In this document: piece by piece, positions 10,924 to 10,939 of the stretch
Position numbering within the stretch: the stretch's first letter is position 1
Layout: every line of letters starts with the position of its first letter
Assembly (NCBI RefSeq): GCF_058153355.1
Contig: NZ_CM177019.1
Direction: 5' to 3' (one strand)
DNA: 64,000 bases
The notes under the pieces: generated by a model
Seen by the model: only the letters and a program-made list of their open reading frames with translations
What the model was told of the DNA's origin: nothing
Database searches by the model: none
Translations under genes and position numbers: made by a program

Positions 10924-10939
10924 TGTGATATAGTTCACA
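10924..10939. promoter_or_regulatory. CRP-binding-site-like palindrome
   Basis: tgtgatatagttcaca matches both TGTGA/TCACA half-sites with 6-bp spacer, in pdeC-yjcB intergenic region. Confidence 0.45.

Follow-up and report, generated by a model that had tools for sequence, protein, structure and literature searches.

The promoters under CRP control to which the locus described here can be compared fall into two classes. In CRP-activated promoters, the CRP site is centered at −61.5, as in lac, at −41.5, as in galP1 and melR, or at more distant upstream positions that share this face of the helix. In CRP-repressed promoters, such as cyaA P2, gal P2, spf and azuC, a strong CRP site lies over the core promoter, that is, over the −35 element, the −10 element or the transcription start, CRP competes with RNA polymerase, and expression goes up in crp mutants or in the presence of glucose. 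A further point of comparison is provided by the mar/sox/rob promoters, among which those of the zwf type, reportedly described by Martin et al. in 1999, are said to carry a forward marbox located upstream, ~30 bp from the −10 element.

The promoter of yjcB, an uncharacterized gene of Escherichia coli, resembles each of these systems in some respects and departs from each in others. With lac, galP1 and melR, it shares the same protein and the same motif, and the quality of the yjcB site is similar or better, but the site is centered at −10.5 and the response to the deletion of crp is the opposite. The likeness to cyaA P2, gal P2, spf and azuC is closer, in that a strong CRP site overlaps the core promoter and yjcB is upregulated in the absence of crp; azuC and yjcB, moreover, both encode small membrane proteins and are both strongly induced by acid. 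Unlike in these four promoters, the spacer of the CRP site in yjcB itself constitutes the −10 hexamer, with the left half-site supplying the TG dinucleotide, and occlusion is accordingly a prediction from this arrangement. As in the mar/sox/rob promoters, there is a forward upstream marbox, and yjcB is a target of MarA and SoxS; unlike in those promoters, the core would carry a second, negative input from CRP, as proposed here, and the −35 region contains a different, invariant box.

The CRP site as such is already known. The yjcB intergenic region ranked second to third genome-wide for Crp in some of the E. coli-based scans of PhyloScan in 2007, such sites being unverified at the time (PMC1794230), the site was noted in Klebsiella in 2013 and 2016, and the effect of crp appears in an E. 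coli paper of 2026; a text search of the literature with the exact sequence produced no match. What is added here is that the site falls exactly on the extended −10 element and on the mapped start, that it is assigned to yjcB over pdeC, and how broadly it is conserved.

A consensus-quality CRP site between pdeC and yjcB

The window, that is, the entire analyzed stretch of 64,000 bp, is a segment of an E. coli chromosome with ~99.6% identity to several non-K-12 strains, in the orientation opposite to that of K-12. The genes surrounding the site, and the site itself, are arranged as follows.

8178–8642, minus strand: soxR
8728–9051, plus strand: soxS
9054–10640, minus strand: pdeC (yjcC), the divergent neighbor, with 283 bp between the start codon and the closer end of the CRP site
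10924–10939, no strand assigned: predicted CRP core TGTGA-TATAGT-TCACA (22-bp form, 10921–10942), with the center at 10931.5, or −10.5 relative to the yjcB start
11070–11351, plus strand: yjcB coding sequence, for a 93-aa membrane protein (PF15940); the gene under the promoter that starts at 10942
11451–11987, minus strand: ssb
from 12242, plus strand: uvrA

The earlier note described this site as a consensus-quality match to CRP with the correct spacing, located in an AT-rich intergenic region between divergent genes, and this description holds in both parts. The sequence TGTGATATAGTTCACA, read at 10924–10939, is the only perfect match to TGTGA-N6-TCACA in the window, compared with a mean of 0.05 in shuffled windows. 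When up to two mismatches are allowed, there is no excess of matches (27 found vs 26.7 expected), and at this level the pdeC–yjcB intergenic region contains no second CRP site. With a 16-bp CRP matrix built from 98 ChIP-seq sites of ETEC H10407 (PMC4287617, Table S3), the score of 10924–10939 is 17.96 bits, which ranks 9/98 against these in vivo CRP sites (median, 13.2 bits). The same site is the best in a matrix scan of the window, where the known malE/malK site at 40444 comes second with 14.17 bits. The gene coordinates agree with the divergent arrangement, and the G+C content is 41% in the pdeC–yjcB intergenic region and 34% between 10690 and 10975, compared with 50% for the whole window.

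Two other sequences in the window, TGTAACAGAGATCACA (40444–40459) and TGTGATCTTGCGCATA (16685–16700), are identical to CRP sites detected by ChIP-seq in ETEC, namely those of malE/malK and aphA, respectively, so that the window contains at least two further in vivo targets of CRP.

Conservation of the site in Enterobacteriaceae

Relatives of YjcB were aligned, and one genome per species was scanned, which resulted in 80 loci from Escherichia, Salmonella, Citrobacter, Enterobacter, Klebsiella, Raoultella, Kosakonia, Phytobacter, Trabulsiella, Lelliottia, Leclercia, Yokenella, Pseudescherichia, Pseudocitrobacter and others. The conservation counts are for 78 sequences, the window among them, from species of at least 15 genera. 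One locus, L002, was left out of these counts because it almost certainly represents E. coli contamination of a Flavobacterium paronense assembly. This locus is a 9.5-kb contig (NZ_JAUFQN010000013.1, labeled Flavobacterium paronense) that encodes a YjcB identical to that of the window and carries an E. coli-like ssb.

The motif [T/C]GTGATA[T/C/G]AGTTCACA is present upstream of yjcB in 78 of the 78 species. Fourteen of the 16 positions, GTGA and TCACA among them, are invariant, with 2.0 bits each; the exact 16-mer is found in 59 species and the perfect core in 65. Variation is confined to two positions, with C in place of the first T in 13 species and C or G as the eighth base in 7. The sites with the C variant still score 15.6–16.1 bits (rank 16/98). 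The conservation has sharp limits, with the information content dropping from 2.0 to <0.5 bit at the base just 3′ of TCACA, and most of the upstream intergenic DNA contains ~0.1–0.5 bit per column in the 78-species alignment. The 5′ flank of the site is A-rich and CAAA-like, matching the CRP consensus. The distance between the site and the yjcB ATG ranges from 64 to 148 nt over the species, and is 131 nt in both K-12 and the window.

A chance match without function could be considered given that at least one perfect TGTGA-N6-TCACA occurs in 5 of 100 shuffled windows, but the presence of the site in all 78 species, with 14 invariant positions embedded in poorly conserved intergenic DNA, refutes this explanation, the probability of which we take to be negligible. 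By its motif, score and conservation, this appears to be an ordinary CRP operator.

The site covers the extended −10 element of yjcB

Two features define the core promoter.

10926–10934, plus strand: extended −10 element TGaTATAGT of the yjcB promoter, with TG at −16/−15 and TATAGT at −13 to −8
10942, plus strand: yjcB transcription start, equivalent to K-12 position 4275169 (minus strand), mapped via position 1670 of the K-12 locus, L001

The σ70 promoter of yjcB given by Shimada 2014 (PMC3946193) is CTAACA-15-TATAGT, with the region marked ‘HNS' in the promoter table. The primary start site of yjcB in K-12 MG1655, at 4275169 on the minus strand, comes from a re-analysis of Cappable-seq data with TSSpredator-Web (PMC12987492, Table 1); the position rests on one K-12 dataset, obtained under antibiotic stress, in which this start ranks with the strongest of the starts that were called enriched in each of the three antibiotic treatments. 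Because the spacing between the site and the ATG is 131 nt in both K-12 and the window, the K-12 start maps to position 10942 of the window.

In this register, the TATAGT hexamer (10929–10934) is exactly the spacer of the CRP site, and the 16-mer spans −18 to −3, with the half-sites at −18 to −14 and −7 to −3. The site overlaps the −10 element of the yjcB promoter, which is the location for occlusion of a core promoter, and coincides with none of the class I and class II positions (−41.5, −61.5, −71.5, −82.5 and −92.5), being centered at −10.5 with respect to yjcB and at about −277 with respect to the sole proposed promoter of pdeC (Shimada 2014, PMC3946193). Nor is there, in any genus, a usable −10 element 21–23 bp or ~41 bp downstream of TCACA. 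With the center at −10.5, class I and class II mechanisms are impossible, and competition with RNA polymerase would be expected instead; since the half-sites flank the −10 hexamer, which is their spacer, CRP and RNA polymerase should be unable to occupy the promoter together.

A scan of 10550–11150 revealed no consensus σ70 promoter, as expected for a promoter that combines an extended −10 element with a poor −35 element. A divergent promoter on the minus strand with the site at −41.5 or −61.5 was also rejected, given that inspection by eye identified no conserved −10-like hexamer at the respective positions.

The same superposition raises the alternative that the 16-mer is an extended −10 element followed by a discriminator, and nothing else, so that the match to CRP is incidental and there is no useful occupancy in vivo. 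The spacer is indeed the −10 hexamer, the TG of TGTGA is an extended −10 motif, and the half-site base that falls outside the promoter motif, the first T, is the one that varies. Furthermore, the lone variable base within the CRP spacer is the third base of the −10 hexamer, the least constrained −10 position, so that the invariance of the spacer is explained by the promoter; the invariant upstream positions include the extended −10 TG, and their conservation is, therefore, partly due to the promoter itself. However, TCACA (−7 to −3) and the G at −17 are invariant across the 78 species as well, and neither is a σ70 contact that needs those bases, whereas the bases at −2, +1 and +2 vary freely. 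Neither the constancy of TCACA, which falls within the discriminator, where a promoter as such does not need fixed bases, nor that of the G at −17 is accounted for by the promoter. It is also unlikely that a −10 element would form a perfect CRP palindrome by chance (0.05 expected per 64 kb), and the C-variant sites, in which the base outside the promoter motif is changed, retain high CRP scores.

The site follows yjcB and not pdeC

The earlier note suggested control of one or both of the flanking genes. For yjcB, this stands, with the site in a fixed register with the core promoter in every species; for pdeC, it does not, given that the distance to the site varies from 283 bp to >2 kb and that the gene is sometimes absent. 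Where pdeC is the divergent neighbor (~45 species), it is 283–700 bp from the CRP site. In ~25 species of Enterobacter, Kosakonia, Phytobacter, Lelliottia, Leclercia and Trabulsiella, pdeC is 1.5–2.3 kb from the site, and in several species, there is no pdeC within 2.5 kb of the yjcB site. In Salmonella enterica subsp. arizonae, soxS is located directly upstream of yjcB, and the CRP site is retained. Because the site and its register with the promoter elements stay constant while the upstream neighbor changes, the site belongs to yjcB rather than to pdeC.

In Enterobacter asburiae (locus L048, 615–2021), the gene between pdeC and yjcB, divergent from yjcB, encodes a 468-aa PAS-GGDEF diguanylate cyclase; this inserted gene was inspected at this one locus among the ~25 species with a similar gap. 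It may be that yjcB is a recurrent neighbor of c-di-GMP genes.

The proposed pdeC promoter itself differs between K-12 and the window. The −35 hexamer proposed by Shimada 2014 (PMC3946193) is TTTTCA in K-12 (L001, 1924–1929) and its equivalent in the window, at 10680–10685, is TTCTCG, so that pdeC expression may vary from strain to strain. The annotation of ETEC H10407 gives pdeC as a pseudogene interrupted by an internal stop.

Response to crp deletion and occupancy of the site

In E. coli W3110 lacking crp, the expression of yjcB at pH 5.5 was 474 TPM compared with 155 TPM (log2 fold change of 1.61), and qPCR showed that yjcB was also upregulated without crp both at pH 7.5 and at pH 5.5 (PMC13339887). 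In Klebsiella pneumoniae lacking crp, yjcC was upregulated 2.85-fold, and the authors, who reported an identical box at −382 to −367 of yjcC, suggested direct repression (PMC5025149). An earlier Klebsiella paper named the identical box ‘Fnr box' (PMC3720812). These published data agree in sign with repression; the effects of crp deletion, of ~3-fold, are modest and could be indirect.

Catabolite control, as suggested in the earlier note, is thus upheld in part: the deep conservation, the high matrix score and the effects of the published deletions speak for a functional site and for expression that depends on crp, but the sign is reversed compared with classical activation. Activation by CRP of class I or class II, acting on yjcB, pdeC or both, would suit a strong palindromic site within a divergent intergenic region, and in Klebsiella, the yjcC-lacZ truncation without the box region was the least active and no longer inducible by paraquat (PMC3720812). 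This truncation, however, also deletes the adjoining activator region and is, therefore, uninformative on the box specifically. Activation is difficult to reconcile with the center of the site at −10.5 from the one yjcB start that has been mapped and the lack of a usable −10 element downstream, with the ~277 bp that separate the site from the proposed pdeC promoter, with pdeC itself being from 283 bp to >2 kb away or missing, and with the increase of both yjcB and Klebsiella yjcC upon crp deletion. We consider it highly improbable.

Another alternative is an architectural role, whereby CRP bends AT-rich, H-NS-prone DNA and so modulates a distant pdeC promoter or a long pdeC leader, the effect on yjcB being a by-product. 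The 2.85-fold increase of Klebsiella yjcC, for which direct repression was proposed, is compatible with such a role, and so are the AT-richness of the region, its ‘HNS' mark in Shimada 2014 and the interplay of H-NS with CRP documented elsewhere (Haycocks 2015). But the site stays unchanged where its distance from pdeC varies between 283 and 700 bp, where, in ~25 species, a whole gene lies between the two (inspected at one locus), and where pdeC is absent, and there is no known pdeC start near the box. This explanation, too, appears improbable.

The occupancy data come from CRP ChIP-seq of ETEC H10407 in M9-fructose, in which the sole signal attributed to yjcB was a low-stringency peak with a fold-above-threshold value <1 and with no motif called (PMC4287617). 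The center of this peak is at 4737089 and the site is at 4737314–4737329 of the H10407 genome, 232 bp apart. This is a weak peak for a site of such strength, for which a clear one would be expected, and the lack of a clear peak on the site speaks for a promoter without useful CRP occupancy. Haycocks 2015 (PMC4287617) reported high-affinity CRP sites elsewhere that are unoccupied, with H-NS excluding CRP. Given that the yjcB region is AT-rich and ‘HNS'-marked (Shimada 2014), CRP may be excluded here under some conditions, by either H-NS or RNA polymerase. The increase of yjcB upon crp deletion argues against a purely incidental match to CRP, as do the invariant bases beyond the needs of the promoter, and we regard the explanation by the promoter alone as rather unlikely.

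Direct repression of yjcB by CRP, through occlusion of the −10 element, is the explanation that we favor and consider probable, if not firmly so. Under this mechanism, the 16-mer would be a cAMP–CRP operator placed over the core promoter of yjcB. The promoter, which is of the extended −10 type and starts at 10942, would be activated by MarA/SoxS/Rob-type regulators from the upstream marbox. At high cAMP, CRP would occlude the −10 region, so that the transcription of yjcB is lowered, and with glucose, or when cAMP is otherwise low, the promoter would be free. The mechanism entails binding of CRP in vivo, a direct effect of crp and steric exclusion, all three of which we infer.

A marbox, an invariant box and stress induction

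Upstream of the CRP site, the yjcB promoter contains two further elements.

10882–10896, plus strand: gcaataaaagtcacg, a marbox, that is, a MarA/SoxS/Rob-type activator site, at −60 to −46 (H10407 4737357–371)
10904–10915, plus strand: box CTGG[C/T][G/T]AA[T/C]AAA at −38 to −27, in a fixed register with the CRP site

The marbox matches the consensus in 10 of the 14 positions over −63 to −44 and is in the forward orientation relative to yjcB. It is the site that MarA ChIP-seq identified for yjcB<>yjcC in ETEC, and SoxS ChIP-exo likewise has yjcB among its targets (PMC5684230). The GCAC-like half of the marbox recurs at the equivalent place in several other genera.

The box at −38 to −27 is nearly invariant in the 78 species, with the CTGG moiety conserved at 96–100%, and makes a poor σ70 −35 element. 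Several identities of this box were considered by eye and rejected: as a σ54 promoter, it has the wrong GG–GC spacing, as a LexA box, it has a CAG half that lacks conservation and is missing from E. coli, and the patterns of a marbox and of RcsB, FadR and GadE/GAD boxes are not matched.

The response of yjcB to severe acid is strong, with a log2 fold change of 7.7 in Ribo-seq and of 5.9 in RNA-seq data (PMC10746267).

A KdgR-type operator downstream of the start

The region immediately downstream of the yjcB start contains one more candidate regulatory element.

10953–10969, minus strand: degenerate KdgR-type operator at +12 to +28, with four mismatches in the window and three in K-12

The 17-bp KdgR consensus used here, AATRAAAYRNYRTTTYA, was checked against the regions upstream of kdgK, kdgT and kduI in K-12, where it is matched with 0–1 mismatch. 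With its four mismatches, the sequence in the window does not qualify as a KdgR operator near a promoter. Most genera carry, downstream of the yjcB start, the sequence AGAAACAnTGTTTCATT, which reads AATGAAACAnTGTTTCT on the minus strand and is one mismatch away from the consensus. The best KdgR box in the 50 nt that follow the CRP site has at most one mismatch at 39 of the 79 loci and two mismatches at 23, which amounts to 62 loci with at most two; the boxes in the latter set start 11–15 nt, mostly 13–14 nt, after TCACA (~+11 to +27; loci L007–L081). Throughout the 395 kb of loci, there are 41 boxes with at most one mismatch, and 40 of these are at the yjcB position. The box of Escherichia has 3–5 mismatches, the promoter-proximal half-site having been lost by three substitutions. 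Kosakonia is heterogeneous, with 5–6 mismatches at four of the seven loci and 1–2 at the other three.

No paper that links KdgR to yjcB was found in the searchable literature. The yjcB box of most genera is as good as those of kdgK, kdgT and kduI, which serve the catabolism of KDG and pectin under the control of KdgR and CRP, and adjoins a CRP site. Unlike these genes, yjcB of Escherichia is devoid of one KdgR half-site, the CRP site of yjcB is placed to repress, and yjcB is not catabolic. A tentative proposal, which we deem possible rather than probable, is that the yjcB promoter of the ancestral Enterobacteriaceae was a multi-input switch of ~90 bp that consisted of the marbox, the −38 to −27 box, the CRP site merged with the extended −10 element, and, at ~+11 to +27, a KdgR operator. 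Under this scenario, yjcB of Salmonella, Citrobacter, Enterobacter, Klebsiella and related bacteria would be a member of the KdgR regulon, whereas in Escherichia, the KdgR input would have been lost through the three substitutions and the CRP input kept.

At position 10967, the window has a T, compared with an A in K-12 (L001, 1645), which gives GTTTCTTTTTT vs GTTTCATTTTT. This T gives rise to a run of six Ts behind a weak inverted repeat, and it degrades the KdgR-like half-site that is left still more.

Other features of the leader were considered and rejected. A hairpin, terminator or attenuator at 10948–10975 is not supported by the fold (−4.9 kcal/mol, z-score of 0.61), and the T-run is strain-specific. 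For a conserved RNA fold of the leader, RNAalifold detected no consensus pair over 76 species, and no Rfam families were identified in the intergenic region. A 24-codon ORF, MKQTECFFFVFCKPRDSQIVSRLP, at 10946–11020, whose ATG at 10946 is 4 nt past the start, shows no conservation beyond Escherichia and is probably not a gene; its equivalents comprise 10 codons in Salmonella and an immediate stop in Citrobacter, and there is no ATG in Kosakonia.

Implications

These observations bring a modest practical gain, given that separate publications already cover the site, the start site and the effect of crp. Their combination bears on one of the uncharacterized E. coli genes that are induced most strongly when cells are stressed by acid, antibiotics and metals. 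A CRP site on the −10 element of yjcB would give a simple, testable reason for the dependence of this gene on the carbon source, and the locus would cleanly illustrate how CRP can repress a promoter that its site overlaps exactly. Assigning the site to yjcB also corrects the assumption that it ties cAMP to the turnover of c-di-GMP via pdeC.
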